From: Vulcanimicrobiota bacterium
Lineage (GTDB): Bacteria > Vulcanimicrobiota > Xenobia > Xenobiales > JADMJV01
Length of the DNA: 64,000 bases
Reading direction: 5' to 3'
Assembly (NCBI GenBank): GCA_050250895.1
Contig: JBFWNU010000001.1
Location: forward strand, 2,884,891-2,948,890
Shown here one piece after another: positions 3 to 27,515 of this stretch. The position numbers were made by a program, and so were the translations under genes. Numbering within the stretch: position 1 is the stretch's first letter; every line of letters begins with the position of its first letter. The notes beneath the pieces were generated by a model. That model was not told where the DNA came from. It saw nothing but the letters and a program-made list of their open reading frames with translations, and searched no databases.

Positions 3-362
3 GCCGCCCTGCGAGCGAAGTTGCTGAGCCCAGAGGTGTATTCGCGATTTCGCAAGATCGCGGCGGGCAAGGTGGCGAAGATGATGCCCCAGATGATCGA
101 GGCCGTGCGGGTAGCGGTACCGAAGGCGTTGCGCGTGATGAGTACGGGCAGGTTGGCGCGACGGGCCGATGCTTGCACACGCTTGGCCGACGAGTTGCGA
201 CAAGAGATGGAATACTATCGGTGGCTCGGCGAACACGAACCGCAGCGGGCCCCGTTCGCCCGTGGCGAACTGGCCGACCGCCAGTTGCTGCTCGAGCGAG
301 TTCGCGACGAGCGCATCGAACTCGAGGGCCTGGCCCTCGTCATCGGGACGCAGAAAGATTGA
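3..362 (+). CDS. C-terminal part of a gene running in from the left edge; probably DpdE-like (SF2 helicase) by synteny
   Basis: The frame is open from position 3 to TGA at 360-362, and the stop overlaps the TTG start of the next gene (TTGA). It sits directly before dpdF-G-H-I homologs, where dpdE normally lies. The visible 113 aa contain no diagnostic motif. Confidence 0.45.
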   Translation, partial: AALRAKLLSPEVYSRFRKIAAGKVAKMMPQMIEAVRVAVPKALRVMSTGRLARRADACTRLADELRQEMEYYRWLGEHEPQRAPFARGELADRQLLLERVRDERIELEGLALVIGTQKD

Positions 363-2854
363 AGACACTCCTGCAAGAGGCCAAGTGCCTGACCGAAGCC
401 CTCGAGGCTGCCGAAGCGCTGGGAGCGCTCGACTGGCAGGGTCAGTCGGTGATGGCCTGCCTCCAGTGCTTTCTTCGGGCCACGGCACCCTCAGACCGGG
501 GGGCATTGCTGCGTGAATTGGTGCGACTTTGCGAAGGGATCGTGTCGCTGCCCTTCCGACCCGAGATCGAGAGCCTGGGGGCCGACATCCTCGCTCGCTA
601 CGGCTTGCGCTCGAACCTGCGCGACGAGCGCATCTATTTGAGTCTGGCTCCCGGCCGACCGGGCGTCGAGAGTGATTTTCTGAAGAGAGTGGCCTGGGCG
701 TGCCAACTCGACCGACTCACGCGTCGGCCCTATCCTCCCACCCTGGCCGACGGTTCGCTGCGGCGCTTGATGGGCCGGGACGGCTATCGCACTCCCACCC
801 AGAAGGCGGCCGCCCGCGCCGCCATGATGATGCCGGGCGACGGCAGTCTGCTGGTGACGATGCCGACGGGTGCCGGCAAGAGCCTCATCTTCCATCTGGC
901 CACTCTTTGGTGGATCGAGGGCACCGCTCCCGGTCGGGCTTGCTCGGTCGTGGTCGTGCCGACCGTTTCACTGGCCCTGGACCACGAGCGCACCGCCCGT
1001 GCCATTCCCGGCCTCGAAGGCAGTCGCGCCCTGCGAAGCGATCTCGCTCCCAGCCTCTATCAGGAGACACTCGAAGCCTTTCGTCGCGGCGAGGTGCCGA
1101 TTCTGTTCGTCTCGCCCGAGGCCGCCATGGGCCGGGCCCGAGACGCCCTGCTCGAAGCGGCCACATCGCTGGCCGAGAAGACCGAGCGGCTACAGGCGCG
1201 TTTGATGGGCTTCTTTGTCGATGAGGTCCACATCGTCGAGTCCTGGGGGCGCTCATTCCGCCCCGACTTCCAGCGCCTGCCCGCCCTGGCCGCCGAATTG
1301 CGCGAGCGCAACAGCAGCCTGCGCACCATCCTGCTCTCGGCCACCGTCAGCGATTCGGCCCTCGAGTTGTTGAAGGCCAGCTACGGCACCGACCAGTTCC
1401 TCTCGCTCTCGGCCGGCGTGGCCCGCTATGAGTTCGACTGGATGGTTAATCGCTGCCCCAACCGCGAGGAGCGTCACCAGCAGGCCTTGCAGGCCCTCGA
1501 CCTGTTGCCCCGGCCCTGCATCGTCTACACCACCACCCGCGACGACGCTGAGCACCTCTACCGCGACCTCGGTCAACGGGGCTACCAGCGGCTTCGCATG
1601 TTCACGGGGGACACCTCGGGCCTCGAGCGCCAGGACATCATTCAAGAGTGGGCCACCGATCAGGTCGATCTGGTGGTGGCCACCTCGGCCTTCGGTATGG
1701 GTATCAACAAGTCCAACGTGCGGGCCGTGCTGCACGCCTGTTTGCCCGAGAATGCCTCGCGTTACTACCAGGAGGTAGGGCGAGGTGGGCGCGATGGCCA
1801 TCAGTGTCTGGCCCTCTGTTTGTGGTGTCCTGAAGACCTTCGCACCGCCCGCGGGTTGTCGACTAGCGAGTGGCTGACGCCCGAGATGGCCGCCACGCGC
1901 TGGCAGGCCCTGCTCGACGACGCTCGGGGCAACGGCGGCTTGCGCTCCAACAAAGGCTCCCACGAGGTCACGGTGCGCCTCGACGCTGCTCACCAGGCTC
2001 TCGGTTCGAAGACCGGCGGACGCAACCGTGACTGGAATCGCCGACTCTTGAACTTGCTCCAGCGCGGCCGAGCTATCGAGTTGCTCACCGATGGCCAGGC
2101 TGACCACGACAGCCCGGTGTGGAGGTTTCGGGTGCTCAAGCCCGAGATCTTCGGCTCTGGGCCCGAGGCCCTGGCTAGCCTGAACGCCCTGCGCGATGCC
2201 GAGCAACACGAAGTCAACCGCCAGTTGCAGGTCCTTCAGGCGCTGGTCGAGCACCCCGAAAGTCAGTGCCTGTTGGCCGGCCTCTTCGAGTTCGTCGAGG
2301 CTGGCCAGCCGATGCCCCAGTATTGCGGCCACTGTGCCTGGTGCCATGCCCAGGGCATCACTCCCCCCGAGAAGCTGCATTTCGGCGGCCTGGATGAGGT
2401 CTGGCCGCTGCGCCCCCCGCGGCGTGAGGTCTTCCCCAGCGGCGTCAGCGCGCTCCAACACGGCGGCGACCTGATGGCCCTCATCCCGCGCTTGCAGCGG
2501 GCCGGCCTGCAACAGTTTCTCGTGCCCGATGGCGAAGGCGAGCAGGCCCTGCGAGTGGTGGGCGAACAGCCGGGCCTGGGACTGGTCCTCGAGTTCTCGA
2601 TGGTCTTGCGTCAGGACTGGGCGCCCGCCGAAATGCCCACCGCGGTCTTCTTCACCGACGAGCGACCCCAGAACGACTCGATGATGAGTTGGGTTCGCAA
2701 GCGGTCTAAGCGCCATCCCAACCACGTCTGGCTGCTGGTGGCTCCCCCGAACATCGGCTTCGAGGAGCGGGGCCTCAACGTGCTGGCCAGCCAGGCACCC
2801 TACGACGAAGCCCAACTAGAAGCCCTCATCAGAAAGGAACCCGTCACTCCGTGA
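359..2854 (+). CDS. dpdF: DpdF-like RecQ-family DEAD/DEAH helicase
   Basis: Motifs MPTGAGKS, DEVH, LSAT, ATSAFGMGINK and YYQEVGRGGRDG, plus C-terminal CGHCAWC. Start moved to TTG 359 (coupled to the upstream stop); the ORF-track extension from 173 is low-complexity. Followed by dpdG/H/I-sized genes. Confidence 0.75.
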   Translation: MKTLLQEAKCLTEALEAAEALGALDWQGQSVMACLQCFLRATAPSDRGALLRELVRLCEGIVSLPFRPEIESLGADILARYGLRSNLRDERIYLSLAPGRPGVESDFLKRVAWACQLDRLTRRPYPPTLADGSLRRLMGRDGYRTPTQKAAARAAMMMPGDGSLLVTMPTGAGKSLIFHLATLWWIEGTAPGRACSVVVVPTVSLALDHERTARAIPGLEGSRALRSDLAPSLYQETLEAFRRGEVPILFVSPEAAMGRARDALLEAATSLAEKTERLQARLMGFFVDEVHIVESWGRSFRPDFQRLPALAAELRERNSSLRTILLSATVSDSALELLKASYGTDQFLSLSAGVARYEFDWMVNRCPNREERHQQALQALDLLPRPCIVYTTTRDDAEHLYRDLGQRGYQRLRMFTGDTSGLERQDIIQEWATDQVDLVVATSAFGMGINKSNVRAVLHACLPENASRYYQEVGRGGRDGHQCLALCLWCPEDLRTARGLSTSEWLTPEMAATRWQALLDDARGNGGLRSNKGSHEVTVRLDAAHQALGSKTGGRNRDWNRRLLNLLQRGRAIELLTDGQADHDSPVWRFRVLKPEIFGSGPEALASLNALRDAEQHEVNRQLQVLQALVEHPESQCLLAGLFEFVEAGQPMPQYCGHCAWCHAQGITPPEKLHFGGLDEVWPLRPPRREVFPSGVSALQHGGDLMALIPRLQRAGLQQFLVPDGEGEQALRVVGEQPGLGLVLEFSMVLRQDWAPAEMPTAVFFTDERPQNDSMMSWVRKRSKRHPNHVWLLVAPPNIGFEERGLNVLASQAPYDEAQLEALIRKEPVTP

Positions 2855-3741
2855 GCGTTCTCAGTAGCACCCGAGGAGACCCAGAACTCCTCTACGCCGT
2901 CTTGCGCCTGCTCCAGGCGCGGGGCGAACCGCTGGCCACCACCGAGTTGCGCGACTGGCTGCAACCCGGCCTGGAGAGATACCCCGGTAGTCTGCTAGGA
3001 GACACCCTGGGGGTGGCCCGCAGCCTGGGTCTGGTGCAGTCGGTCGGCAAGAGCGTCGAGCTCACCTCAGAAGAGCCCCTTGACGCCATCGTGCAACTCG
3101 CCGATCGCGTCCACCTCAGACTTTGCACCTGTACCGCCGACGACCCGGACCTGGTGCTCTATCAGACTTTTGCCTGGTTCGTGGTGCAGTGCGAAAAGAA
3201 TGGCCAGACCACCCAGTGGATCGAGGGCTATTCGCGGCGTTCGGACCTGGCCGATGAGATCGACCAGGCCCTGCGCACCCTGCGACCCGACCAGGATGCC
3301 CGGGTGTTCAACGACTCGAAATATGCAAGTTGGAGCAACTGGCTGCACTTCACCGGCCTCGCCTGCGACCTGGGCAAGAGTTTTGGATTCTATCCGTTCG
3401 TCTACGAGCGGCTCAAACGGGAACTAGCCCGAGTGTCACACGACCTCGGTTTGAGAAAACAACTCGACCTGGAGATCGTGCTCCAGGAGGTGGCTCGCGC
3501 GATGCCTTATCTCGACGGCGGCAGAATTTTCGCAGACCTCTCGTCGGCGCTGAGGTGGCAGCAGCCACCTCGCAAGCTGACCCTGGTGCTTAGCACCGCC
3601 TTGCGCGAACTGCACGACCTCGAAGAGATCGAACTAGTCTCGAAGGGCGACATGGCCGACGCCTTCGCCCTGGCCGAAGACCGCTACTCGCGGGTCGGCT
3701 TCGCCCGCTGGATTGTTTTGAAGGAAGGTCTGTTTTCGTGA
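2851..3741 (+). CDS. dpdG: DpdG-like protein
   Basis: 296 aa, with GTGA overlaps on both sides. FNDSKYASWSNWLHFTGL, MPYLDGG and LSTALRELH resemble DpdG motifs, and it lies between dpdF- and dpdH-like genes. Confidence 0.65.
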   Translation: MSVLSSTRGDPELLYAVLRLLQARGEPLATTELRDWLQPGLERYPGSLLGDTLGVARSLGLVQSVGKSVELTSEEPLDAIVQLADRVHLRLCTCTADDPDLVLYQTFAWFVVQCEKNGQTTQWIEGYSRRSDLADEIDQALRTLRPDQDARVFNDSKYASWSNWLHFTGLACDLGKSFGFYPFVYERLKRELARVSHDLGLRKQLDLEIVLQEVARAMPYLDGGRIFADLSSALRWQQPPRKLTLVLSTALRELHDLEEIELVSKGDMADAFALAEDRYSRVGFARWIVLKEGLFS

Positions 3742-6700
3742 GCTTCGAGGGATTTGTTTGTTGGAAAGAGAGCGATGCCCGGGCCATCCTGGCCACCGAG
3801 GCTCTGGAAGGCAGTGAGGCCGCCTTCTTAGCCACCCATCTGCCCATCTCCGACTTCGAGGTGCAGGGCGTTCACGGGGCCGACATTCAGGAGGCCACCG
3901 AACAGGCTCTGCTCGACGTTCTCTCCACTCCCGAACGGCGCCACGCTTTTTGCGTGGTGGAGGGTGAGCCCGGTTCGGGGAAGTCGCATCTCATTCGCTG
4001 GCTTGGCGTCCGGTGGCCGCGAGGCGACGATCTCGTCCTGCTCATTCAGCGCGCCGATGGCAGCCTTGAGGGCACTCTCGAGCAACTGACCCGCAAGGTG
4101 CCCGAGCGTTACGCGCATCTCTTCGCGGGTCTCGGCAGTCGTCAAGAGGCCTCGTTGCGGGGACGGGCTCGCCTCTTCCTTTCGACTCTGGCCCGAACCC
4201 TCGAGGAGGATTACTTCGAAGAAGACGTTCCCCATGCCGAATGGTGTGCCAACTTTCAACTCTCTGACCTCTTCGACAACCCGGCCGTGCGCGACAATTG
4301 GCGAACCCCTGGCCGAATTCTCGACATCTATTCTGGTCGGACCAACTCAGAATTGGGCTTCTTTACCCTGAAGGATATCGCTGAACTGGCCGACCTCGAA
4401 AGCCGGATCCAGAACGAGAAGCCACCGCCAAAGGCTTTTCGCTTCATCCGCACGCTGGCAAAAGAGGGGCGGGAGCTGCGCAACTTTCTGGAGGCCGACT
4501 ATACCGAGTCGGAGATCAAAGCGGCCGCCGGCGACAAGCTCGTCAACACCTTCACCCTGGTCGACGCGCTGAACGTGCGTCTCAACCATGCCATTCAGAA
4601 CCTTATCGGCATCAGCTCGCACGGGCTGCGCGAACTCTTTCTGCGCTTGCGCCGCGAACTCAAGAAAGACAACCGTCGGCTGGTGCTGCTGCTGGAGGAC
4701 ATCACCAACTTTCAGGGCATCGACCAGCAGTTGATCGACGCCCTGGTCACCCAGAGCACCACCCGCACCGAAGACGACCTCTGCGACCTGGTCTCGGCGG
4801 TGGGCATTACGCCTGCCTACTTCGAGCGCTACCTCAGCACCATGGGCAACTACATCGAGCGCATTACCTATCACGTTCGCCTCGGGCGCGAGCAAGAGGG
4901 CAGTCACATGCAAGACGTGGCCAGCCTGCGCAACCCGGAAGCCCAGGTTCAATTTGCCGCCAACTACCTTCGAGCCACCCGGGCCGGGTTAGAACGCCTG
5001 GAACAGTGGGCCGGCAGCCAGGACCAGTCAGTTCCCAATGTCTGCTTGTCCTGTCAGCACCGGTCGGTGTGCCATGGTGCCTTCGGAGCCGCCGACGGAG
5101 TCGGTCTCTACCCCTTTACGGCCGGGGCCATCACGGGCATGTTCCATCGACTGGTCGACCCTCACGCGGCCACCCAGACCACACATCAGACTCCGCGCGG
5201 TATGCTCCAGGGAGTCTTGACCCCGACGCTGATGCACCCGCACGTCATCGAAGAGCAAGAATTTCCCTCACCCCACGCCGATGTGCCCTGGATCCCCGAG
5301 GAGCGACGGAGGTTGCGGGGCGACCACAAGCAGTTTCTGGCCGTCCAGGTGCAAGACCTCGACACGCGCCAACGCCTCGAGCGCCTCATCGAACTGTGGG
5401 GCACCCGCGACCACGTCGAGACCACCAAAGACGAAGCGGGTGAATTGCTTTTTGCCGGGCTCTCACGGGGGGTCTACGAAGCCTTTTCATTGCCGTGGTT
5501 GGGCGATGCCCAGCGGGCGCTCGAGACCCCCGCGCCGCCGCCCCCGCCTGTGGCGGTGGAACAGCCGAGAGTGCACCGAGTCCAGCCATCGGCGCCCTCG
5601 CCCAAGAAGAGTCGGACCGAGGTCATCCCGTCCGAGAAGCGCGCCACACCGAAGAAGGTGCGAGTCGACCTCGACATACGACGCGACCAGCTAGCGAATT
5701 GGCTAAAAGACGGGGGTCGTCTTGAAGATGCGGAGTTCTGGGCAGCGCAGGTTCAGAAGCTCCTGGACCTTTTGCCCTGGGCCCATTTGGACGTATCCCC
5801 GGCAATTCGAAGAGGCTTCTTCACGTCGAACCTCATCCACATCGAACGAAGTGGCACCGCACGCCGCGCCTACCACTTCGTCATTCCGGCCGAGAAGTGG
5901 TTGGCTGACGGACTCGAGGTCTTCATTGCTATCGAGGCGGGCACCGCAGAGGTCAGCGAGTTCCAGCGGCGCTGTCTGGCTCGGGCTCTGTCTCAACTGA
6001 AGAGGCTCGTCCTGCGACGTGTGGCCGAGGTGATTCCCTCGGTCGAGGGTCGACCCTGGTCGGTTGCCGGGTCAGCAACCCAGCTGCTGGTGGCGATGGA
6101 GTGGTTGGGCAAAGGAGCTTCGCCCGAGCAACCGCTGGTGGAGCAGTGGATACGGGTGCGCGACGACCAGGCACCCGGGGCGCCATCGAAGGAGAGAACA
6201 CAAAGGTGGCGGCGCGTGGCCGAGTTGAGCAGGCACCGGAGCGTGCTTCGTAACCTGCTGGCGAGTTTCATCACCTTACGAGACGGCACAGTCTTCTTGG
6301 ACGCAGCCGATGCGTGCACCGCGCTCGAGCGCCTGCGCCGAACGTTTTCGTTCGACGCAACCCCCGATCTGCCCGACCTTCAGCATTGGGCGGACATGAA
6401 GAAACTTGGGCAGCGGGCGCAAGACTCGCGCGCAGATTTTCAGTTGGCGGCAAGAGACGAGATTCGTCGTTTGCGAGACGGCTGCCAGGAGTTGGACGAG
6501 TACTTGCGCCAGAACTCGCTTTCGGAGCACGTGAAACGCATAGACTCGGTTCTCGAGGGAGTGCAGCGAGTGGATGTTCTTACCACCAATCGGCCCCGCG
6601 AATGGCATGACCAGCGAGGGGCGCTCGAGGACGCGGGGCTGATTGGGCCTTCGCCGGCTCTCGACATCTGCGGCTTCTTGGACGAGACACTTGAGCGCGA

Positions 6701-6950
6701 CGGCGAGTTCTCATCGCCTCTCGATGCTTTCCTCTGGTGTAGGGGGGCGCCGGCTGAAGCTCTGCAGCTGGTCCTTTCGGCCTGTCGCTCGGGAGAAGCC
6801 CTGGTGGCCGACCTCTTCACCCACGTACAGACCTATGGAGATGTGCGTGGCGGGGAAGCGAGTCTATCGAAGGTTCACGAGCGGGGCGAGTGGTTGAAAT
6901 CGGTGGGCGACGCCCTTCGGGCGCAGTTGGAGGTGAAGAGTGAAGTCTAA
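3738..6950 (+). CDS. dpdH: DpdH-like large P-loop ATPase
   Basis: 1070 aa. Walker A GEPGSGKSHLIRW, Walker B LVLLLEDIT, Cys cluster CLSCQHRSVCH, and GLYPF and TPR motifs. Size and position match DpdH. Confidence 0.7.
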   Translation: MSFEGFVCWKESDARAILATEALEGSEAAFLATHLPISDFEVQGVHGADIQEATEQALLDVLSTPERRHAFCVVEGEPGSGKSHLIRWLGVRWPRGDDLVLLIQRADGSLEGTLEQLTRKVPERYAHLFAGLGSRQEASLRGRARLFLSTLARTLEEDYFEEDVPHAEWCANFQLSDLFDNPAVRDNWRTPGRILDIYSGRTNSELGFFTLKDIAELADLESRIQNEKPPPKAFRFIRTLAKEGRELRNFLEADYTESEIKAAAGDKLVNTFTLVDALNVRLNHAIQNLIGISSHGLRELFLRLRRELKKDNRRLVLLLEDITNFQGIDQQLIDALVTQSTTRTEDDLCDLVSAVGITPAYFERYLSTMGNYIERITYHVRLGREQEGSHMQDVASLRNPEAQVQFAANYLRATRAGLERLEQWAGSQDQSVPNVCLSCQHRSVCHGAFGAADGVGLYPFTAGAITGMFHRLVDPHAATQTTHQTPRGMLQGVLTPTLMHPHVIEEQEFPSPHADVPWIPEERRRLRGDHKQFLAVQVQDLDTRQRLERLIELWGTRDHVETTKDEAGELLFAGLSRGVYEAFSLPWLGDAQRALETPAPPPPPVAVEQPRVHRVQPSAPSPKKSRTEVIPSEKRATPKKVRVDLDIRRDQLANWLKDGGRLEDAEFWAAQVQKLLDLLPWAHLDVSPAIRRGFFTSNLIHIERSGTARRAYHFVIPAEKWLADGLEVFIAIEAGTAEVSEFQRRCLARALSQLKRLVLRRVAEVIPSVEGRPWSVAGSATQLLVAMEWLGKGASPEQPLVEQWIRVRDDQAPGAPSKERTQRWRRVAELSRHRSVLRNLLASFITLRDGTVFLDAADACTALERLRRTFSFDATPDLPDLQHWADMKKLGQRAQDSRADFQLAARDEIRRLRDGCQELDEYLRQNSLSEHVKRIDSVLEGVQRVDVLTTNRPREWHDQRGALEDAGLIGPSPALDICGFLDETLERDGEFSSPLDAFLWCRGAPAEALQLVLSACRSGEALVADLFTHVQTYGDVRGGEASLSKVHERGEWLKSVGDALRAQLEVKSEV

Positions 6951-7653
6951 GTTGGCGCCACTGGAGGAACTCGAAGCTGCTTTACCCGGCCTGGGCGGGG
7001 CCGTTCAACGACACCACCTGGGCCAGAAGCTGGACTTTGCCTGTTCTCGCCTCGATAAGATCGCCGGAAGAGCGCAGGAGTTGGCGACCTATCCCGAGGT
7101 TCTGCCCCTGGTAATTGAGCAGCTCGAGGCCGTTGTTCGAGAGAATCTAGCTGGCAAGGCGCGAGGAGTTTGGGCCATCGGGGACAGGGCGTGCAAAGCG
7201 GACACCGCCGACGCTCTCGACGAGTTGGCTCGGGAGTTGAGCAAGATTGGCGAGTGGGCTAAGGAGATGCAGAGCTATCTCTTGGCGGCCTGGCAGCGAC
7301 GGGTCAAGACGGAGTTCGGCCCGGCCGGCCACTTGGGCCGGGTCCTCCAAGAACTCGCCGATGCGCCAGACCTGCGCGAAGTCGCCGAAATGATGACTGA
7401 GGTCGGTGCCGAGGGGGCGAAGTGCGGTGCCCGCTTGCCAGTGAACGAGGAACAGCGGAGGAGGTTCGCCCGCTTACGGGCTGAGCGCGACGAGGCCTAT
7501 GCGCTGTTGGCTGCTTCAGGGGCAGCGGATGATGTGGTGGAGTTTCTCCAGGCTGTGGCCGAGGATAGAGCGACGCTGGAGCAGGTCACTCCGGGAGTTT
7601 TTGGTTGGTTGCGGGAGAAGGGCGCTGGGGGAAGGTTTAGGGTGGGGTTATGA
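6940..7653 (+). CDS. DpdI-like alpha-helical protein
   Basis: 237-aa helical protein overlapping the dpdH stop, with C-terminal FLQAV...ATLEQVTPGVFGWL. Called from size and position. Confidence 0.5.
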   Translation: MKSKLAPLEELEAALPGLGGAVQRHHLGQKLDFACSRLDKIAGRAQELATYPEVLPLVIEQLEAVVRENLAGKARGVWAIGDRACKADTADALDELARELSKIGEWAKEMQSYLLAAWQRRVKTEFGPAGHLGRVLQELADAPDLREVAEMMTEVGAEGAKCGARLPVNEEQRRRFARLRAERDEAYALLAASGAADDVVEFLQAVAEDRATLEQVTPGVFGWLREKGAGGRFRVGL

Positions 7654-7686
7654 AGCACTCCGTGATAAGGGGTGTTTTCGGCTGCT

Positions 7687-10600
7687 CTAGAGGTCAAATT
7701 CCCGGAGTCGCCTCGCAACCAACCGCCTTAGTTCTGGTAGCCGTGAAAAAAGTTGGTTACCGGGGCACTCTGTTGGCACCAGGTCACGATGGCCAACGAT
7801 CGAGTCTGGACTTATTTTGCTTGCGTAACATATTGACGCACAAAGCTCGACCAATCTCTCCCATTGCTCGGGTGGCATCTCGGTTTTGCGAAAATCACCA
7901 AAGTTTTCAATGCCAATAGAATTTGAGTTGTCCTCCTTGGTCCCGGCGTGGGCGCCCTGGACAGTAAAGCCTTTTCGCGCGGCCGCCAACGAGCCTTCCC
8001 GCCCCTCAAAGACAACACCATCTGATGATATCACGAACTGAACGCCAACATCGTCCCACGCGCGCTCAAAATCTATTCTCTGGAGGGATCTCATGTTCGC
8101 TCGCGCAGTTCCTTCGGCGTCATTCCTGGCTAACACTGGCAAGCTCCCAGTGTGATGAATCACAATAGATTTAGCCTCCCCGAGCTTAAACTCCCGCTTC
8201 GCGCGCAGGGCCCCCCATTCCGATCTGGTCACGACCTCATCCAGAGTCTTGAAAGGATTGGGCGGGGCGACAGCCATACTCTGAATCGGCCACGCGCGAA
8301 CCTTCGGCTTTGGTGGAGGAAAGCCCGGAGGTGGGCCCCAAGCCAAGACTAAGAGAAGACCCAAGCCAAGGCCAAACGCGGTGAGTCGCTCTATCATCTG
8401 GTCGAGGAGCCCGATCAGAGCGAACCCTTGACCAATTAGGTAGACAGTACAGGCCAGCACGGGAAGCCACTCTTGGGCACCAACCAAATTCAAGGCAACC
8501 GCCAGCATCAATCCAGAAAGGGCCAGACGCCATCGTGGAGCCGAGTTGCCAGGAAGTTGGCCGATTTCCCAAATCCAATAGAGGGTCAGCAACAACCAGC
8601 CAAACCGCCCCGTGGAGGTGGAATATAAGATTGCGAGCACCGCTCGACCTGGAAGAGGAGTATTGAGATCCAGGCATCGCTCTGGGGCTACTCGATCCCA
8701 TAATCTGGCAACTTTCTGTCTCCAGATTGCCATCGCCAATACGAACGCGATAAGGAGCACCTCCGAAACGGGCTTGGCGCGGCCGGCCAGTTCAGCCAGA
8801 TAGAGGTCCAAAAGGAAGAGTGAGGTCAAGAAGCAGGCAAGTAGAAAGATGACTTCCAAAAATGACTGACGACAGGCAAGACGAGTGAACACAATCCGTC
8901 GAATTCCGTAGAGTGAAAAGACCAGAAACGCGATGAAGGGAAACGCGATGAAGGCTCCCGATGGCCAAGGAAAACTAAAGATGATCGCTGGCCACACGAG
9001 TAGTCCTGCGAATAGCCCACCCCGCGGCATCTCGTTGAAGGAGCCCTTTACCACCAGTTGGAGAGCCCGCTCCGGGTCGATTCGGTCCACCGCGCTCAGC
9101 GGGCGCCTGATTTGGAATGGGGCCCGGTGTTGCCACAGAATTCCCAGACATCCGCAACACATCATCAAGACAGCCCCGACGGGCTCGACAGCGAAACCGA
9201 AGGGAATCGAAAAAAGTAGCGCTCGATAGAGGCGCCCCTTCCGTTCTCCGTTGCCGAAGAGCAAAATGGCGCTTAACAAGGCCGCGAAGAGAATACCCAC
9301 GGGTCGCGGCCACCACAGAGCCGCAACCGTGCCCAGAACCACTGATCCTATCGTAGTCGGGATGGCCGAATGATGCTGCCCTATCTCGAGTGAGGCTCGG
9401 AGTTCCTTCAGAGCAGTCCACAAACGAAGCCGGACCCGTTGACGCTCGCCATCGTCCAGGGTAATTGAGCCCTCCGCACCATCTTCCGTTTCAGGCACAC
9501 TGGTGTCGTGCAAATGTCTGACGAGGTCGGCGACTTGTTCGCTTTGGGCTCGCGCCTCTTCGCGCGGGAGGCTTGCCAGCAACCAATCCCTCAGCCACGT
9601 TGGTATGGATCCGGTGCGAAACCAGGGGAGTCGGAAAAGTTTGAGCAGAGAGGCAGTGCCCCGTTCACCAGTGGGTCGCCCGGCTAGAAGTGCGAGCGTC
9701 AGATCGAAATGAAGACTCCTGTAGGTAGCGCAACTCTGAAGCACCCGAAAGTGGTCGTGCCCCAGGTATGCTTCCAACTGATTCAGGAACTCTTCGATTT
9801 TCTGCGGACTAGGAGGGCGCGGCGCCGTCCACGTCCGCTCGTCAAGTTGGAGAGCCAAAGGATATCCCTCTTCCGCTGGGTAAAGTTGCTCCTTCGCTCC
9901 ACTCGTTAAAGCATCCAAGCCCTCGTAGCTGAATGGAGAAATCAAAATCCCCGACTGCTTCAACCTGTTAAGCAACTCAGGGAACTCCAAAACGTCGGGT
10001 AGCGCCATCACTCGAACAATGCGCTCGCGCGAGAGTTGGAGCAACCATTTGAGTGGTTGAAAGGAGAATGCCTGGTGGAGACTCCTCGGTGCGGCGAATA
10101 CCCACACCTCGCTCGGGTTGAGTCGACCGAACAACTCCTCCCGGTGAAGCCACTGACCTCTGTAGCGCACAAACCTGGGTTCGCCCTCAAAATAGGCCCA
10201 ATGGACGGGGAGACTAGCGTCTAGGAGTTGTTGGGCGAAGCCTTCGAACAACCGAGCTTGGTGGTCAAGATGGGACCGCCGCTCTATTAGGAAGAAGTAG
10301 ACCTTCAACCTGGTTGTCTGATGGTACACTGGCGTGAAAAGCCCAGCATGGCGGACAGTGGCTTTCACCGACCGGCCAATGCTCAGCACCGGTTCTGCCG
10401 AGGCCTTCTTAAGTGCCAGACTCCGGACAAGCCGAGCGAGCAGATTGTGGTCAAACCAGCGTGACCCCGTCAGTTTGCGCTGAGAGTGACGTCTGAGAGA
10501 CACTTCCCACGCTTTTCTTACCAGGACTGGTTCAATGCGGGATAGCTTCGTCATGGCGACGAGGAGACAGGCAAGTCCGAGGCTCGCCAAAGTGGCGGTA

Positions 10601-12099
10601 AGAACCCAATCCGGCAGGAGCGGGGGCCTAGAAACAATTGAGGCACCAAGGTTCCATACCTTGAAGTTCCTTTCCAAATCCACAAGTCTTAGTTCTGGGC
10701 AGGAGGTGAACAACCAACGTCCATCTGCGCTGGTCAGTAGAGAGATAATCGACCCCTCCAGCTTGATACTGGAGACCTCACTACGCTTGGCCAAATCCCA
10801 TATTCTAACACGACCGTCCTCTTGTCCGAGAAGGAGCCGCTTATCCGGCGACCAGGTGAGCGTGGTAATTGGGCTCTCGGCTCTAGGAATGGTGGCGAGC
10901 AGTCGGTCGTATTCCCAGACTTGAACGGACCCATCCACTAGGAGGAGCCCGGCTTCCCCATCGGGGTGGCAAACCGCTTTCGCAACCGCCCGGCTAAGGG
11001 TCGCGCGCCGTGAAGCCTCGCCCTTGCTCATCCAATCGATCTCATTCTCACCAACCGCCGTTACAGCACGGTCGCCAGCCACTGCCAAAACTCGGTGCCC
11101 GATCGATCCCAACCGAAACGGGATGGGTGGGAGCATTTTGCCATCGCCATCGGCTCGTCCATCGATTCCGGCCACTAATGCCACTTCTCCATCGGCCAAG
11201 CCGCAGGTCAACGTCGGCCACTCGGACCCCCTCCCGGCCATCAGTGCTGTCACCGGTGCGGATCCGATCTCAATTTGAAAGCTGCGGATTGTCGGATCTT
11301 CAGCCGGCCGAAATGACCTGACATCAAAAACCCAGACACTCCCGTTTCCGTCACCTACGGCTAGGACTCGACCTGCCGCCACCAACTTCGTTATTGGACC
11401 GCCCCTCCACGGCGTCTCCGTTCGCCGCCCGTCGATCCAGAGGTCCAGTTTCTCACCTGATGCGACCGCAAGATAACCAGCCCCTGCGACAATCGGGGTT
11501 GTGATGGACGAATCGATTTGACCGAGGTCTTCGTAACCGTTAGTCTTTTCAAGATAGCGCTCAGAGAGTGTCCACATCCGCAGACTGCCGTCCGCGCCCA
11601 ATGCAAAGAGCGAAGAACCGCCGTGAGACTTACTAAAATTTGAAGAGTTCGGTGTCGGAATGACCGAAGGTTGGGGGGGAGCTTGAGGAACCATGTTCGT
11701 GCGACTGACATCCGACAGAAGGTCAGCGGGTGCGGTTGTGCGCGGCGGGCAGAACTTATAGGTCAGTATGAGAACTGTGCTAAGAAGGAGCGCGACTATC
11801 CACCACCTGGACTTTGGCACGGTTGGCGGCTCAACAACTGGCTCTGGCCCAGAACCAGCACTCTCAAGCCGGAGCCACTGAGCGAAGTCTCGCGAAAAGG
11901 TCTCCTGCTCCGGGGCACTTTTGACCAGAATTGGTCTCAGAAAGTCGCGTGCATCAGCGAGTCTGAACTCAGGGTTTCCTCTAACCAAGTTCTTTAGGAG
12001 TGCGTGGCCCCTTAGCCTCTCTCGAACTCCAACGCTATATCCTCGCCCCTCAAGAAATTCAAACAGCCGATCCAGCGTCGTCGGACTAGGAATCAACAA
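7687..12099 (-). CDS. Ternary-system vWA-like membrane protein: N-terminal helical domain, TM, WD40 propeller, TM, vWA-like domain, multi-TM block, C-terminal Amidase_2/PGRP-like domain
   Basis: WD-like repeats (GADGSLRMW, GDGNGSVWVFD, DGSVQVWE, GQEDGRVRIWD). ATVRHAGLFTPVY and FLIERRSHLDHQ (degenerate MIDAS) are typical of MoxR-associated vWA proteins. Amidase motifs IVIHHT, GAHA, SIGIE and GHRD...TECPG. Overlaps the MoxR gene. Confidence 0.75.
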   Translation of the reverse strand: MLIPSPTTLDRLFEFLEGRGYSVGVRERLRGHALLKNLVRGNPEFRLADARDFLRPILVKSAPEQETFSRDFAQWLRLESAGSGPEPVVEPPTVPKSRWWIVALLLSTVLILTYKFCPPRTTAPADLLSDVSRTNMVPQAPPQPSVIPTPNSSNFSKSHGGSSLFALGADGSLRMWTLSERYLEKTNGYEDLGQIDSSITTPIVAGAGYLAVASGEKLDLWIDGRRTETPWRGGPITKLVAAGRVLAVGDGNGSVWVFDVRSFRPAEDPTIRSFQIEIGSAPVTALMAGRGSEWPTLTCGLADGEVALVAGIDGRADGDGKMLPPIPFRLGSIGHRVLAVAGDRAVTAVGENEIDWMSKGEASRRATLSRAVAKAVCHPDGEAGLLLVDGSVQVWEYDRLLATIPRAESPITTLTWSPDKRLLLGQEDGRVRIWDLAKRSEVSSIKLEGSIISLLTSADGRWLFTSCPELRLVDLERNFKVWNLGASIVSRPPLLPDWVLTATLASLGLACLLVAMTKLSRIEPVLVRKAWEVSLRRHSQRKLTGSRWFDHNLLARLVRSLALKKASAEPVLSIGRSVKATVRHAGLFTPVYHQTTRLKVYFFLIERRSHLDHQARLFEGFAQQLLDASLPVHWAYFEGEPRFVRYRGQWLHREELFGRLNPSEVWVFAAPRSLHQAFSFQPLKWLLQLSRERIVRVMALPDVLEFPELLNRLKQSGILISPFSYEGLDALTSGAKEQLYPAEEGYPLALQLDERTWTAPRPPSPQKIEEFLNQLEAYLGHDHFRVLQSCATYRSLHFDLTLALLAGRPTGERGTASLLKLFRLPWFRTGSIPTWLRDWLLASLPREEARAQSEQVADLVRHLHDTSVPETEDGAEGSITLDDGERQRVRLRLWTALKELRASLEIGQHHSAIPTTIGSVVLGTVAALWWPRPVGILFAALLSAILLFGNGERKGRLYRALLFSIPFGFAVEPVGAVLMMCCGCLGILWQHRAPFQIRRPLSAVDRIDPERALQLVVKGSFNEMPRGGLFAGLLVWPAIIFSFPWPSGAFIAFPFIAFLVFSLYGIRRIVFTRLACRQSFLEVIFLLACFLTSLFLLDLYLAELAGRAKPVSEVLLIAFVLAMAIWRQKVARLWDRVAPERCLDLNTPLPGRAVLAILYSTSTGRFGWLLLTLYWIWEIGQLPGNSAPRWRLALSGLMLAVALNLVGAQEWLPVLACTVYLIGQGFALIGLLDQMIERLTAFGLGLGLLLVLAWGPPPGFPPPKPKVRAWPIQSMAVAPPNPFKTLDEVVTRSEWGALRAKREFKLGEAKSIVIHHTGSLPVLARNDAEGTARANMRSLQRIDFERAWDDVGVQFVISSDGVVFEGREGSLAAARKGFTVQGAHAGTKEDNSNSIGIENFGDFRKTEMPPEQWERLVELCASICYASKISPDSIVGHRDLVPTECPGNQLFSRLPELRRLVARRLREFDL

Positions 12100-13024: not shown

Positions 13025-14340
13025 TTGGCGTCTCCAAAAAAATGCGGCTTGAGAATGTCGCCAATGCGCTCTACCCAAATCTCCATGGTCAACGGCTCTT
13101 CGAGTATTTTTCTGGCTTGTGATTCTATTTGCTTTAGTTGGTAGGCTCCACACCACCGCGGAAGGTGCTCTAGATTGATCTTCTCGAAGCCGTCGATTCG
13201 AATACATTCGGCGCCGGGTCCGTTCAACCACGACTCCACGTCCCGCTGCGAGAGTGTGCTTTGAGCGGATGGGTTGAACCAGGTAGCCAACTTTGCCAAC
13301 AGCCCAGGTTCGCGGTATTCTAGAAAAAAGATCACAGAAGCCTGGGGATTTCTGCCGAGACTCTTTTTGAGCAGTCGAAGATATTCACCGAAACGGGGCT
13401 GCATCATTTTCCTTAGAGTCTCTTTCTGGCAGACATATTGATAAAGGAGTCGGGGGCCCCTTCCTACCTGTGAAATCAACTCTCTCTCCACTTCATCCGG
13501 TTCCCAACTCTCCAAGGGCGGGATGTCCAAGCTACGGGGTTCCTGGGGATGTGCGGCGAGATGATCGGTGAAGCGAGAGATGACGTGGCCTGCTAACCCA
13601 AACGCTGCGAACATTTGGCTGCGTTCTCTTTGTCCGGCCCTAAAGAGCTCTCTCTGCGAGTGCCGATTGACCAGGTATTCAACTACTCCCAGTCCCGGCC
13701 GAGAGGGTCCGCACGTAGGGCTCCCATTCCTCCCACCCGCTTCTAGTTCGAACGTGAAATCCCCACACACACTGCGATAACTGTCCAACTTTGGGTCTTT
13801 TCGAACCTCTCGTAGCAACTCTTCTTGCCGCCAACGACCAACCCACAAGATGTCTTTGACATCAATATCGCGACCAAACGGGTGATTCGTTTTTGGTTTG
13901 GTATCGGAGGCTTCCCAACGCTCGTCAAACTGTTTGAAGAACTGCTGTCGGAGTTCATCTTCCCTTTGGCTTTGACCCTCGTCGCTGTCCGCCAAAAAGT
14001 AGAGGGCGCAGTTTGCCGTATTTGTCATCTTGCCAATGAAGAACTCAAGTTCAAGGTATACCCAGCTCTTCTTTCTCGTCAGATTATTGATTGTGTTTTC
14101 AGAGACAAAGACTACCAAGCCTGCCGAGCTCCTCAAACCAGCAGCGAGTTTGGGCGTGATGCCGTCGCCGGGCTTGATAACCGCTTCGTCCAGGAAGACG
14201 GAGAGAGCGTGTTTACCTACTTCGCGAACCTTGAGCGAATCATAAACACTACGCACCCAGCCGCGCTCATGATGGTCTTGACCCTTGTCCCGGCTGTCGT
14301 GCGAAAGGAACAAATCGTAATGTTGATTATCGTCAGCCAT
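13021..14340 (-). CDS. TIR domain fused to a probable inactive STAND (iSTAND) domain
   Basis: N-terminal TIR (YDLFLSHDSRDK, VFLDE...PGD, SWVYLELE). The C-terminal half starts EYLVNRHSQ and lacks an intact Walker A, resembling iSTAND. It is the first gene before MoxR and vWA. Confidence 0.65.
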   Translation of the reverse strand: MADDNQHYDLFLSHDSRDKGQDHHERGWVRSVYDSLKVREVGKHALSVFLDEAVIKPGDGITPKLAAGLRSSAGLVVFVSENTINNLTRKKSWVYLELEFFIGKMTNTANCALYFLADSDEGQSQREDELRQQFFKQFDERWEASDTKPKTNHPFGRDIDVKDILWVGRWRQEELLREVRKDPKLDSYRSVCGDFTFELEAGGRNGSPTCGPSRPGLGVVEYLVNRHSQRELFRAGQRERSQMFAAFGLAGHVISRFTDHLAAHPQEPRSLDIPPLESWEPDEVERELISQVGRGPRLLYQYVCQKETLRKMMQPRFGEYLRLLKKSLGRNPQASVIFFLEYREPGLLAKLATWFNPSAQSTLSQRDVESWLNGPGAECIRIDGFEKINLEHLPRWCGAYQLKQIESQARKILEEPLTMEIWVERIGDILKPHFFGDAK

Positions 14341-14410
14341 GTAACGGAGTGGAACTGCGAAACGAATTCGCAGTCCAGCCGCCCTTATCCTGTCAACCTA
14401 TCTGCGATGC

Positions 14411-15145
14411 CTAGCCAAAGAAGGCGTCGAAAATGTGCGGGGAAAGGAGGAGGACGAGAAAAAAAAGCCAGGCGATGTTGACCTCGAGTTTACCCAACGG
14501 GGTTTCCCTCTCCGGGTCTTGCTTCAGGCCACCGAGGCCTGCGTCGTTTTGGCCGCTCTCAGGAAACTCATCAATTGATGGGGCCTTCTTTTGTATGTCA
14601 TTGATTGAAGGCGATTCCTCTCGCCATGATCCGGCCGGGGTTCCCCCCTCGAAAGGCCGGGATAGGGTGAAGCTGATTCCTTCGGCGAGAAGCTCGGCTT
14701 GTTGTAGCCACTCCGGTTGACCCGGGTGGAGTAACGCCTCGCGACCGTCTGTGTGGAGGAAGAAGCGAATCTGCTTAAACCTGGATAGAAGGTCCCAAAT
14801 CTCCTCAGCCGCCCGACTACGAGGTATTTCTGATTGGAGCAGGATGGGAACGACCTTTGACATACCGTGATTACCAAGAAACGCGGATAGCTCATATCGA
14901 CACCATTCGGACTCGAAGTAGGCCCGAGAAACAATGCAGAGTAACAGCCGGCTGCGCCCAAGCACCCTCTCTGCTTCAAATTCGACACCCGCTGAGAGAC
15001 CGGTGTCATTGAAGATTTTGGTGGGGCGGCCGATGTGCGCCGTAATCCTTTGCTGGAGGAACACCATTAGGGACTCCACCCACTCGGCATCTTCCCCTGT
15101 GTAGCTTATGTATAGGTCGTAGTCAGGGTCGTCTCGGATATTCAT
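14411..15145 (-). CDS. TIR-domain protein with hydrophobic C-terminal tail
   Basis: YDLYISYTGED, LLLCIVSRAYFESEWCRYEL (Glu retained) and VVPILL. The C-terminus IAWLFFLVLLLSP is a possible membrane anchor. Confidence 0.8.
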   Translation of the reverse strand: MNIRDDPDYDLYISYTGEDAEWVESLMVFLQQRITAHIGRPTKIFNDTGLSAGVEFEAERVLGRSRLLLCIVSRAYFESEWCRYELSAFLGNHGMSKVVPILLQSEIPRSRAAEEIWDLLSRFKQIRFFLHTDGREALLHPGQPEWLQQAELLAEGISFTLSRPFEGGTPAGSWREESPSINDIQKKAPSIDEFPESGQNDAGLGGLKQDPERETPLGKLEVNIAWLFFLVLLLSPHIFDAFFG

Positions 15146-15150
15146 GAAAT

Positions 15151-21522: not shown

Positions 21523-23753
21523 GCCTGGTCTCCCAGCATCTCGAGAAACTCGACCACCCTCTCGGTATTGAAGTCGCGGAAGGAGCGGTCAATAAACCAC
21601 TGATCCTCGGGGTTGTCCAGCAAAAGGTGCTGCATCTCGGCGGACCCGTACTTCGCGGCCCACATCCGGGCCCGCACCTGCGTGTTGCTGTCGACAGGGT
21701 CTAGTTGGATCTGAAAAGGTTCCCAGCGGGTGGGGTCGAGCAGGATGTCGGGGTCGTTGTTGGTCAGCACCAGGTTGATGTCATCCGGCCCCAACTCCGC
21801 GTCGCGGCTTTCGGTTGGCACCCTGAACCTGAACCTGGCCCACGGCTTGCCCTCGCGATGACTCTCGAGTCGCAGCTGGGCGAAGCACTTCATCGCATCG
21901 CGGCGCGCCTCCCAAGGTTGGGCCAGGCTGATGAGGGCGTTGAGCATCCCAGACTTCTCGGCCAGCAACTCGTAGGCTCGCAAGATCTCGAGGTCTTCTC
22001 TACCCAGCGGATTGAATTCGGCCTGGAACGCGAAAGGCTGTTTTCTCAGCCGCAGGAACGGAGAAGCAGCGGCAGCGTTCTGTTCGAGCACCCACCGGGC
22101 CAGGTGGCGCAACGAGGCCAGACGAATGCGCAGGTCGTCTTCGATGTCGCGCATACCCCGGTGACCATCTCGAAGCTTGCGCAAGACCTCGATGGAGAGT
22201 CGGGTGGAGAAGTCTCGCTTGAAAGCTTGCGACGGTTCGTAGGCCTCGCTCAGTCCGACAGCGGTGAGAGCCTGGGTGACCTGGCGCAGGTCGTAGGACA
22301 CTGTCACCGGCAGCAGATAGAGCTGCTCCATCACCGTCCTCAGGGCGGTGGCGGGAAGGTGGTGATAGCCGCGATAGCCTGGTTCGGGGATGACTTCTTC
22401 GGGCGGGAATAGTCGCACCAGGTCAAGCAGTCCGGTGCGGATGTCGGGGTCGTTCAGGTGGCGACCCACTGCCCGTTGCAAGTCTTTGGCTTCGGATGGC
22501 TCATAGAGCAAGATGTGGGCGTAGAGGCGCTGGGCTTCGGGCAGCCGCTGGTTGTGCTCGTGCAGCCGTCGCAGGTCGAGGACCAGTTTGCCCAGCACTT
22601 GCTTTAGCGCGCGTATCTCCTCGGCGGGCTGGCCCTTCGGCAAGAGGGCTGTGGCGTATTGCACCTCACCCTGCCAGTCGAGGAGATAGCCGAGAGTGAC
22701 CAGGTTGCCCTGCATCGGGTCGGAGTCGACCACCAGATACAGGCCTACGTCGATGCGAGGTGGCATCAGGTAGGTATAGCGCTCTTCGAGTATCTTCGGC
22801 TGCCCATTCACCAGCGTCTCGGCTCGGAGCCGGAGCAACTCGGCCTGGCGCTTGAGCGACCAGCTGTCGAGCTTCTGGTTGCGGATACCCTGGGCGCGGG
22901 CCAGGCCACCCACTGTGTGGATGCCCAGCTTCTCCAGGGCCCGCTTGGCCTCGTGGCTCATGCCCGGCACGGCCGATACGTCATTCTTGGCGGCTTCTCG
23001 CTCGATGGCGCGACGGCAATGGGGGAGATAGCCACACTGCTCGCATTTGTAGTAGAGGTGGAAGAAGGTTTCGTCTCGTCCGGGTTCTACGACCTGTTCT
23101 TGCAGCCGAGGCACGGTTCTTTCGAAGAAGTCTCTGACCAGGTTCTCATAGCTCTTGAGCTTGAACTCGAGCCTGTCATAGAGCCCGTCGGCTCCGTCTT
23201 CACCGCGGCGCAGGTGCCAGATTTCGCCCACTTCGTCCACTCTCGCCTCGACGCCCATGTCTTTGAGCATGCCCTGGAGCAGGTGGGAGTAGAAAGCCAC
23301 CTGCGCTTTGTGGAAGTAGGTGGCCACCTGGGTTGCTTTGACGTCGATGATGCGAATGGCGCCGTCGACCCACTGGAGTAGGTCGGGGTAGCAATGCCTG
23401 AAGATGATCTGGTCGTCGCTGCTGAGTTGCTGCCTCAGGCTCGGGCCGCCGAAGAGGACGGCCTGGTGGGCGAACTCGCAGTCGTTCTGACCGCGCAGGA
23501 AGGCCGCCGTGATGCGCTGGCCGAGGTTCTGCTCGCCCGCCTTTGGGGTGAGGACCTTGCTCTCGCGCGCCAGGCGGCGGACGACGGCCAGTTCGAAGTC
23601 GTTGCCCAGTTCGGCCCAGCTGTCCTTCTGGTCGTCTTTGAGGATAGGGATGGCCTCGCGCTCGTCGCGACTCATCGTCTCGTAGCGCGTCTTGCGGTCA
23701 CATCGATATTGAAACCACGATTTGATGGTCGTGGCACTGAAGCTTAGTGGCAT
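21519..23753 (-). CDS. PD-(D/E)XK (Cas4/RecB/Dna2-like) nuclease with probable Fe-S cysteines
   Basis: YPDLL...IIDVK...QVAFY catalytic motifs, N-terminal YRC plus CEQC-x5-C, and an HhH-like VPGMS segment. GTGA overlap with the helicase fusion. Confidence 0.8.
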   Translation of the reverse strand: MPLSFSATTIKSWFQYRCDRKTRYETMSRDEREAIPILKDDQKDSWAELGNDFELAVVRRLARESKVLTPKAGEQNLGQRITAAFLRGQNDCEFAHQAVLFGGPSLRQQLSSDDQIIFRHCYPDLLQWVDGAIRIIDVKATQVATYFHKAQVAFYSHLLQGMLKDMGVEARVDEVGEIWHLRRGEDGADGLYDRLEFKLKSYENLVRDFFERTVPRLQEQVVEPGRDETFFHLYYKCEQCGYLPHCRRAIEREAAKNDVSAVPGMSHEAKRALEKLGIHTVGGLARAQGIRNQKLDSWSLKRQAELLRLRAETLVNGQPKILEERYTYLMPPRIDVGLYLVVDSDPMQGNLVTLGYLLDWQGEVQYATALLPKGQPAEEIRALKQVLGKLVLDLRRLHEHNQRLPEAQRLYAHILLYEPSEAKDLQRAVGRHLNDPDIRTGLLDLVRLFPPEEVIPEPGYRGYHHLPATALRTVMEQLYLLPVTVSYDLRQVTQALTAVGLSEAYEPSQAFKRDFSTRLSIEVLRKLRDGHRGMRDIEDDLRIRLASLRHLARWVLEQNAAAASPFLRLRKQPFAFQAEFNPLGREDLEILRAYELLAEKSGMLNALISLAQPWEARRDAMKCFAQLRLESHREGKPWARFRFRVPTESRDAELGPDDINLVLTNNDPDILLDPTRWEPFQIQLDPVDSNTQVRARMWAAKYGSAEMQHLLLDNPEDQWFIDRSFRDFNTERVVEFLEMLGDQA

Positions 23754-23810
23754 CGAACCCCCGATTCGTTCAGGGCCGTTCGTCGCCAGTGCTGGTTCGC
23801 CTTCGATGAC

Positions 23811-25538: not shown

Positions 25539-25757
25539 CCTGGGCCTCGGAATTTGGACCTGGCGACTCGATTTTGCTGGGGCTTGTCGTTGTAAAGTCC
25601 AGGGGATTTACATTTGGGCATGGATTGCGATCCTTCTTCCTGTCGGCCAGGGTGCCTCACTCGGAATGCAATGGCGCCCAGATGTGTCTGGGGGACTGTT
25701 CTGCTACGGATCTTGTCCCTCTCAGCACTGCTTTCGGCGGTCGCCCGTAGCGGGCCT

Positions 25758-27460: not shown

Positions 27461-27515
27461 CGTAGGTGCTCGTTCGCCGGCAAGACTCGACCTCCTTGCC
27501 CGACTTGACTCCGAG

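Follow-up and report, generated by a model that had tools for sequence, protein, structure and literature searches.

The DNA analysed here is a stretch of 64,000 nucleotides (hereafter, the window; G000:C1:2884891-2948890) from the 9.5-Mb genome of a Vulcanimicrobiota bacterium (GenBank assembly GCA_050250895.1, contig JBFWNU010000001.1), and it carries genes of a Dpd system, the 7-deazaguanine-based modification and restriction of DNA. The 40 kb left of the window (stretch L004) were analysed as well, and NCBIfam, PADLOC, and Pfam profiles were used throughout. On the + strand, the window opens with the end of dpdE, followed by dpdF, a dpdG-like gene, dpdH, and a dpdI-like gene. The opposite strand carries a gene for a PD-(D/E)XK nuclease followed by a long dpdJ, whose 3' end (15151) lies 7.5 kb from the end of dpdI (7653). 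Coordinates of all features are collected in Table 1.

The preliminary description of this stretch, made from its letters alone, had recognized dpdE to dpdI as a translationally coupled series of Dpd genes, and stop and start codons do overlap at every junction. Strong matches to Dpd profiles were obtained for DpdE (NCBIfam 364.9 bits, E 8.8e-109, cut-off 500; PADLOC 2.5e-71), DpdF (PADLOC PDLC02862 1.2e-145, covering 6-808 of 811 positions; NCBIfam 487.8 bits, cut-off 550), and DpdH (PADLOC PDLC02884 7e-163; NCBIfam 323.6 bits, cut-off 450), as well as for DpdJ (see below). DpdG matched more weakly, with a full-length NCBIfam alignment (5e-16, 58.9 bits, cut-off 80) and a marginal PADLOC hit (1.8e-5), and DpdI only marginally (PADLOC 8.9e-4; NCBIfam 3.8e-3). 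Homologues of DpdI with 25 to 34% identity were found by tblastn between dpdH and the dpdJ end in related loci, where the positions of both DpdG and DpdI are conserved. DpdH/I are termed BrxC-like in a recent preprint (10.1101/2025.09.15.676423). Profile searches also confirmed that dpdA, dpdB, dpdC, dpdK, and dpdD are absent inside the window.

The long DpdJ is covered nearly end to end by the PADLOC model PDLC02895 (E=0, 1710 bits, 3-2104 of 2112 positions) and reached 319 bits with NCBIfam (cut-off 800). Residues from about 40 to 470 form an SF1B helicase of the Dna2/Upf1 type (Pfam AAA_11 and AAA_12), in which the motifs GPPGTGKT and DEASQ are invariant and K71 is the Walker A lysine. When an AlphaFold2 (AF2) model of this module, with a predicted local distance difference test (pLDDT) score of 84.7, was searched with Foldseek, the top PDB match was Dna2 (5ean_A, E 7e-24, 22% identity over 495 columns), followed by Upf1, Sen1, and IGHMBP2, in line with the Dna2-like helicase proposed earlier for this end of the protein. 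Two small alpha/beta modules (residues about 500-650) come next, and from about residue 670 to the end the protein is an SF2 helicase of the YprA family and of DpdJ type, with invariant motifs TGSGKTE, DEIH, and QRKGRGGRG; by BLASTP, residues 722-1493 align with 67-849 of the canonical DpdJ (26% identity, E 1e-46). A four-cysteine cluster is kept near the C terminus (C1903, C2047xxxC2051xxC2054), which the canonical DpdJ is said, in the same preprint, to have lost (10.1101/2025.09.15.676423). The proposal that this protein is a double helicase with a DpdJ-like C-terminal part, encoded opposite to dpdI, thus stands. Its novelty does not, since PDLC02895 already spans the whole protein and the fusion is therefore not new to databases. 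A tRNA-Ser(aga) placed by ARAGORN inside dpdJ (20624-20704, + strand) is probably spurious, with no Rfam match at the gathering score.

The gene upstream of dpdJ encodes what we call the Dpd-associated nuclease. Residues 1-265 of this protein make up a four-cysteine PD-(D/E)XK domain of the Cas4/Dna2 type, and an HhH-like segment comes next. In an alignment of 62 homologues, seven positions never vary (D124, K139, Q151, Y155, C237, C240, C246), and two more, C18 and D137, are conserved in at least 90%. We read these residues as D124, D137-x-K139, and Q151xxxY155, together with C18 and C237xxC240x5C246, that is, D...(D/E)xK, QxxxY, and C...CxxCx5C, which is the pattern of the iron-sulfur (Fe-S) nucleases of the Cas4/Dna2/AddB kind. 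The AlphaFold model (pLDDT 88; predicted template modelling score, 0.84) agrees with this reading: the fold of residues 1-265 matched Cas4 (7mi5_A, E 1.7e-5) as well as Dna2, MGME1, Exo5, AdnAB, and RecE in Foldseek, and Cas4 7mi4_A in VIA-align (Z 13.4, root mean square deviation [rmsd] 3.5, 195 residues aligned). A second domain (residues about 331-610) has a DEDD/DnaQ-like 3'-5' exonuclease fold (5mdn_B, Z 13.5, rmsd 2.9, 180 residues aligned), and, in the complex model described below, the C-terminal domain docks on the SF1 module of DpdJ. Judged by motifs and modelled fold, the protein is a putative Cas4/Dna2/AddB-type PD-(D/E)XK nuclease with a predicted Fe-S site, much as it had first been described.

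By sequence, no relative of the nuclease in the PDB was better than E 0.22, and no PADLOC model matched it at E ≤ 1e-3. That it is a distant DpdD was considered and rejected (hhalign probability 0.09). With the profile of the TM0106-family RecB-like nucleases (TIGR03491), it scored 48.9 bits, below the cut-off of 97.45; both have a RecB-like nuclease domain combined with one of RNase H/DEDD type, a resemblance only. The nuclease family comprised 477 clusters at E ≤ 1e-3 among 7999 candidates scored. The best 120 of these 477 were mostly about 720-815 amino acids long, mostly with near-full query coverage, and their source names were "PD-(D/E)XK nuclease family protein," "predicted RecB family nuclease," or "hypothetical protein."

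Going by sequence and structure models, a single Dna2-like nuclease-helicase is divided here between the nuclease and the SF1B module of DpdJ, which are encoded by two open reading frames (ORFs) with a 4-nucleotide overlap and not by one as in Dna2. A search among longer proteins recovered relatives in which the halves are fused, six proteins of 1333-1490 amino acids (P0121-P0126). In P0121 (1410 amino acids), residues 11-881 align colinearly with the nuclease from end to end (E 6e-24, 5e-21), and residues 931-1388 match DpdJ 44-472 with 32% identity (E 1e-53); the helicase half of the fused proteins had its best PADLOC match in the N-terminal part of the long-DpdJ model. The eight metagenome loci with the fused form (L068-L075) contained no Dpd genes, and in seven of them a D12-class N6-adenine methyltransferase gene lies directly downstream, an arrangement that looks like a restriction enzyme next to its modification enzyme. 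No name for this pair was found in the libraries searched, and it may be an unnamed two-gene restriction-modification-like system. One of the eight loci (L072) also carries a DUF4011-SF1-MTES_1575 (Hhe-like) gene.

A complex model of DpdJ residues 1-550 with nuclease residues 300-744 scored 0.68, compared with 0.00 for the best of three controls. The runs agreed in at least 73% of contacts, with partner pLDDT of at least 79, and the modelled interface joins nuclease residues 585-598 and 728-741 to DpdJ residues 1-15, 159-194, 215-228, and 352-356. Such a pass was to be expected, since relatives encode both parts in one fused gene.

The preliminary description had left room for a different modification arm or none at all. 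However, a block queC-queE-queD-folE2-dpdC-dpdB'-dpdA-dpdB lies 11-18 kb left of the window, which refutes that suggestion. The genes for preQ0 supply (queC, queE, queD, and folE2) were each above their own NCBIfam cut-off. Two copies of the DGQHR/ParB-like ATPase DpdB were present (cut-off 300), one (dpdB', 368.6 bits) preceding dpdA and the other (504.3 bits) following it, and DpdC was identified by PADLOC (2.4e-75) and Pfam (DUF6884). The genome has this one Dpd island, with no second DpdA, DpdB, DpdC, DpdH, DpdJ, or nuclease. As for the canonical components, the best DpdK score in the whole genome was 27.3 bits (cut-off 100) with no tblastn match at 1e-8, and neither profile nor tblastn searches of the whole genome returned anything for DpdD.

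A scan limited to one genome per species gave 50 loci, and counts were made by tblastn with the window proteins. Their hosts include Alphaproteobacteria, Myxococcota, Chromatiaceae, Bryobacteraceae, and Lentisphaeria, and 42 of the loci have a full-length nuclease. Of the 38 loci in which the nuclease is full length and the sequence extends at least 2.5 kb downstream of it, 37 carry a long DpdJ with both halves directly after it. Where at least 9 kb were available downstream, dpdH, usually with dpdI, converges on the end of dpdJ (30/34 loci). The two halves of the system, dpdE-I and nuclease-DpdJ, hence co-occur elsewhere, as had been anticipated; what does not hold is that being split sets this system apart, the subtype normally having nuclease-dpdJ and dpdE-I operons that converge. 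Peculiar to the present genome are a 7.5-kb cassette between the operons and the placement of the dpdABC block on the side of dpdE. In the survey, 31 loci had at least 8 kb of upstream sequence, and dpdA lay within 10 kb in 17 of them.

The genomes behind 36 of the loci were searched for DpdA, which was above the cut-off in 35, and for DpdK and DpdD, which were above it in none (0/36 each). The lack of both proteins alongside this pair therefore extends from the present genome to all 36 others. A control for DpdK in a class-level sample was uninformative (0/400 genomes at E ≤ 1e-10), and the canonical plasmid pPOL9A of Enterobacter cloacae was used instead, giving 182 bits for DpdK and 494.5 bits for DpdD. 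Similarly, DpdA was too rare for a subtype count in Alphaproteobacteria (1/400 genomes besides the centre genome), for which reason we turned to a plasmid collection: the nuclease occurred on four records, all four with DpdA, DpdK on six, and both on none.

Several individual loci deserve mention. The Archangium locus has the nuclease, long DpdJ, DpdI, and DpdH, and a Sphingopyxis metagenome-assembled genome (L039) has the layout of this subtype. Modified bases were reportedly detected in a Sphingopyxis strain by Thiaville et al. in 2016. Cultured carriers of the subtype include strains of Sphingomonas (L046), Rhizobium (L022), Caulobacter (L077), and Corallococcus (L020). A compact form of the subtype is found on a plasmid of Caulobacter sp. 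S6 (L077; NZ_CP073079.1, 5004-27665), with no dpdE annotated between dpdF and the que genes; there, RefSeq names only DpdA and DpdB, the nuclease being a "hypothetical protein" and the long DpdJ an "AAA domain-containing protein." Truncated nuclease matches without dpdJ were seen in four loci (L057, L058, L063, and L064, the last on a second scaffold of Devosia sp. ZB163 and accompanied by a DpdH fragment), and these are probably decayed second copies.

Table 1. Features of the Dpd island and its surroundings. Positions refer to the window unless preceded by L004, the stretch to its left.
Feature	Position	Strand	Remarks
dpdA, TGT-like DNA transglycosylase	L004:6395-7660		Left of window; NF041059 579.6 bits (cut-off 200); PADLOC 1.7e-178
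DGQHR (DndB/DpdB-like) protein, 549 aa (amino acids), then HNH endonuclease, 294 aa	L004:8829-11375	-	Between dpdB and insertion sequence (IS) elements
IS66-family transposase fragment and ISKra4-family transposase gene	L004:11737-14105		Separate dpdABC block from dpdE
TIR and FGE-sulfatase fusion, 504 aa	L004:14181-15695	+	Upstream of dpdE
dpdE 3' end, SNF2-type helicase, 1190 aa in total	3..362 (last 119 codons)	+	Gene start L004:16790; frame runs on into L004
dpdF, RecQ-like DEAD-box helicase	359..2854	+	TTG start overlaps dpdE stop (TTGA)
dpdG-like gene	2851..3741	+	GTGA overlap with dpdF
dpdH, P-loop ATPase	3738..6950	+	GTGA overlap with dpdG
dpdI-like gene (name given by position)	6940..7653	+	11-nt (nucleotide) overlap with dpdH
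Inserted four-gene cassette	7687..15145	- (dpdJ strand)	Between dpdI and dpdJ
WD40 repeats and C-terminal Amidase_2/PGRP-type protein, 1470 aa	7687..12099	-	Pfam
AAA ATPase	12086..about 13024-13231	-	Weak MadB/IetA-like matches
TIR protein, 439 aa	13021..14340	-	Pfam
TIR protein, 244 aa	14411..15145	-	ATG 5 nt after dpdJ stop
Long dpdJ, 2123 aa	15151..21522	-	GTGA overlap with nuclease gene
Dpd-associated nuclease, 744 aa	21519..23753	-	Upstream of dpdJ, GTGA overlap; Pfam PF12705
TIR protein, 575 aa	23811-25538	-	Ends 57 nt upstream of nuclease start
NERD and UvrD-type helicase	26249-29218	-	PADLOC "RTasNERD-Hel" 7.2e-52

The cassette between the converging operons has a guanine-plus-cytosine (GC) content of 0.53-0.59, compared with 0.61-0.66 in its flanks, and was not found in the other related loci by tblastn. 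Window positions 6000-16500 were carried by none of 30 relatives, and this part is therefore recent and strain specific. No known system matched the cassette above threshold, its NCBIfam matches being weak and far below the cut-offs, and its 1470-amino-acid protein had no usable match in the ESM Atlas. We take the cassette to be a foreign, unrelated defence-type insertion at the meeting point of the two operons, although, given that it begins so close behind the dpdJ stop codon, it may be cotranscribed with dpdJ. Four TIR-domain genes lie in the island, and none was seen in the 50 related loci. Beyond the nuclease, the NERD-UvrD helicase gene, adjoined by a gene for a 441-amino-acid protein with a weak DUF6880 match, looks like a further defence-type gene beside the island. 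On the other side, a 255-amino-acid ORF is also among the genes between the dpdABC block and dpdE. Homologues of the DGQHR and HNH proteins encoded there are located directly upstream of the nuclease in the locus of Mesorhizobium sanjuanii (L038), and the two may be a second accessory module of such islands.

Taking these data together, the window would contain the restriction arm of a single complete Dpd island (~46 kb), belonging to a widespread subtype that has the nuclease and a DpdJ fused to a Dna2-like helicase and lacks DpdK and DpdD. We give this reading a probability of about 0.75. That a Dpd system is present, as first proposed, is supported by the identification by profile of DpdA, B, C, E, F, H, and J together with queC, queD, queE, and folE2. 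In S. Montevideo, according to a 2023 biochemical paper, DpdA/B put preQ0 into DNA, DpdC makes ADG, and DpdD-K restrict, the roles of DpdD-K being called unknown there (PMC10164549). By this scheme, DpdA/B/C would mark the host DNA with dPreQ0/dADG, and DpdE-I and the SF2 part of DpdJ would engage unmarked DNA. With its C-terminal helices bound to the SF1 motor, the nuclease would degrade that DNA processively, in a Dna2- or AddAB-like manner, and the nuclease-SF1 module would thereby take over the role ascribed in canonical systems to DpdK, with DpdD.

A number of observations weigh against this reading. The proteins of the restriction arm all stay below the NCBIfam equivalog cut-offs, and with BLASTP neither DpdG nor DpdI hits the canonical proteins. 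In the survey, one locus (L017) of the 38 has the nuclease without dpdJ, and 4 of the 34 lack the convergent dpdH, two of these four having dpdF/G/H or dpdE in tandem. The DEDD-fold domain of the nuclease has D343-x-D345 in place of the D-x-E of the family, and its activity is therefore uncertain. The joint placement of the two window proteins in the complex model is a prediction only. Its score of 0.68 was attained by 58 of 80 solved complexes and by 2 of 110 mismatched pairs, a calibration that holds only roughly because our own alignments were used. Finally, the IS66 and ISKra4 genes, the extra genes, and the cassette could have disturbed expression, and a scan for promoters and terminators in window positions 6800-26000 returned fewer sites than shuffled sequence, none above chance.

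The nuclease and long DpdJ might instead be an independent two-gene defence system that sits beside the Dpd genes and does not work with dpdE-I. Such autonomy would fit their separate operon on the opposite strand, the fused relatives that occur beside a methyltransferase in loci without Dpd genes, and the variable gene content of the arm illustrated by the Caulobacter plasmid. However, the C-terminal two thirds of the helicase protein is a DpdJ homologue in a genome that has no other DpdJ, and no locus with long enough flanks carried the pair without Dpd genes. With dpdI-dpdH abutting the dpdJ end in most loci and DpdA accompanying the nuclease in nearly all genomes and on all four plasmids, we consider this explanation unlikely. 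No more credible to us is a role of the nuclease in processing or repairing DNA ends together with the YprA-family helicase, as in MrfA-MrfB (YprA-YprB), in which case some other component would make the lethal cut. The middle DEDD fold of the nuclease does match the MrfB exonuclease core (8un9_B, Z 11.1, rmsd 4.1, 171 residues aligned), and a 2016 review leaves the identity of the restricting Dpd protein as a question. Yet no other nuclease domain was found in DpdE-J with Pfam, PADLOC, or NCBIfam, the nuclease occurs exactly where the PLD nuclease DpdK is missing, and its fused relatives are partnered by a DNA methyltransferase, much like restriction enzymes.

The insertions also raise the question of decay, in which case the island would be a remnant whose modification has been uncoupled from restriction and which no longer restricts. 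The IS66 fragment and ISKra4 transposase gene between dpdB and dpdE and the low-GC cassette between dpdI and dpdJ, in a segment that none of the 30 relatives carried, are what such a remnant might contain. Nevertheless, all dpd ORFs are full length when compared with profiles or homologues, their stop/start overlaps and the helicase and nuclease motifs are intact, and the insertions fall between operons and never inside genes, all of which makes decay very improbable.

The subtype offers a clear candidate effector, a nuclease of the Cas4/Dna2 type with an SF1 motor of its own. Judging from the fused relatives next to a methyltransferase, one and the same cassette may serve different modification marks, and we lean, by a small margin, to a broader view in which nuclease and SF1B helicase are a portable restriction cassette for unrelated self-marking systems, working as a single polypeptide next to an N6-adenine methyltransferase and as split halves in Dpd, with the helicase half on DpdJ, and in which this cassette displaced DpdK/DpdD in this bacterial lineage. 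On that view there would be a second major Dpd type, spread over Alphaproteobacteria, Myxococcota, Chromatiaceae, Bryobacteraceae, and Lentisphaeria, whose restriction arm is at present missed by annotation pipelines, and the DNA-cutting component of a Dpd system could be named. Archangium is listed among the genera with islands lacking a restriction operon in a genome-mining preprint; given the four restriction genes of its locus described above, Salmonella-seeded surveys may undercount restriction arms.

In the literature searched, we found no description of the bacterial pair of nuclease and long DpdJ, of the domains of the nuclease, or of the fused relatives, although the supplements of 10.1101/2025.09.15.676423 and of the GATOR-GC preprint may list the class. 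No named Dpd nuclease of this kind was found there either; DpdL and DpdM are names of phage enzymes. What is new here is the recognition of the Cas4/Dna2-type and DEDD-fold domains of the nuclease, the Dna2 match of the SF1 module, the fused relatives, and the complex model.

Compared with the canonical system, for which the reference was the Enterobacter cloacae plasmid pPOL9A (NZ_CP086409.1; order dpdA-B / dpdD-K-J-I-H-G-F-E), the island has in common a modification arm and a multihelicase restriction arm. DpdA and DpdB are 50% and 53% identical to their canonical counterparts, while DpdE, F, H, and J are at 23-33%. Canonical Dpd has dpdE-F-G-H-I-J-K-D on one strand, a DpdJ of 1478 amino acids, the PLD nuclease DpdK, and DpdD. 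The present island, in contrast, has neither DpdK nor DpdD, its DpdJ has an extra SF1B helicase and the C-terminal four-cysteine cluster, and a Cas4/Dna2-like nuclease precedes DpdJ on the strand opposite to dpdE-I. PADLOC-DB v2 has no model for this nuclease and matches DpdG and DpdI only marginally, but PDLC02895, PDLC02862, and PDLC02884 match the DpdJ, DpdF, and DpdH of the window full length, so that the F, H, and long J of the subtype are already in a defence-system database.

Among the nearest known systems is BRIGADE, which, according to the preprint, combines 7-deazaguanine genes with YprA-family helicases, sometimes with PLD replaced by PD-(D/E)xK, and is associated with a DNA2-like helicase/nuclease; the same text mentions "many uncharacterized ... 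Dpd-like classes" (10.1101/2025.09.15.676423). BRIGADE is reported there only from halophilic archaea and with ARMADA-like YprA helicases, whereas the present system is bacterial, has a helicase of the DpdJ branch, and has its Dna2-like enzyme in two parts, the helicase part being fused to DpdJ. The likeness to Dna2, AddAB, and AdnAB lies in a nuclease domain with C...CxxCx5C joined to an SF1 motor. The gene order nuclease-SF1 helicase mirrors the domain order of Dna2, which structurally matches both parts. The differences are the division into two polypeptides, the extra DEDD-fold domain, and the fusion of the helicase to a second (SF2) motor, and we claim no orthology to Dna2. P0121-P0126 align colinearly with the nuclease and then with the first 470 residues of DpdJ; they differ in being single polypeptides and in their genomic context, without Dpd genes and, in all but one locus, with a methyltransferase directly downstream. 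Overall, the system is an under-described variant of a known one, its nuclease lacking a PADLOC model and passing as "hypothetical" in RefSeq, its long DpdJ already part of PADLOC.

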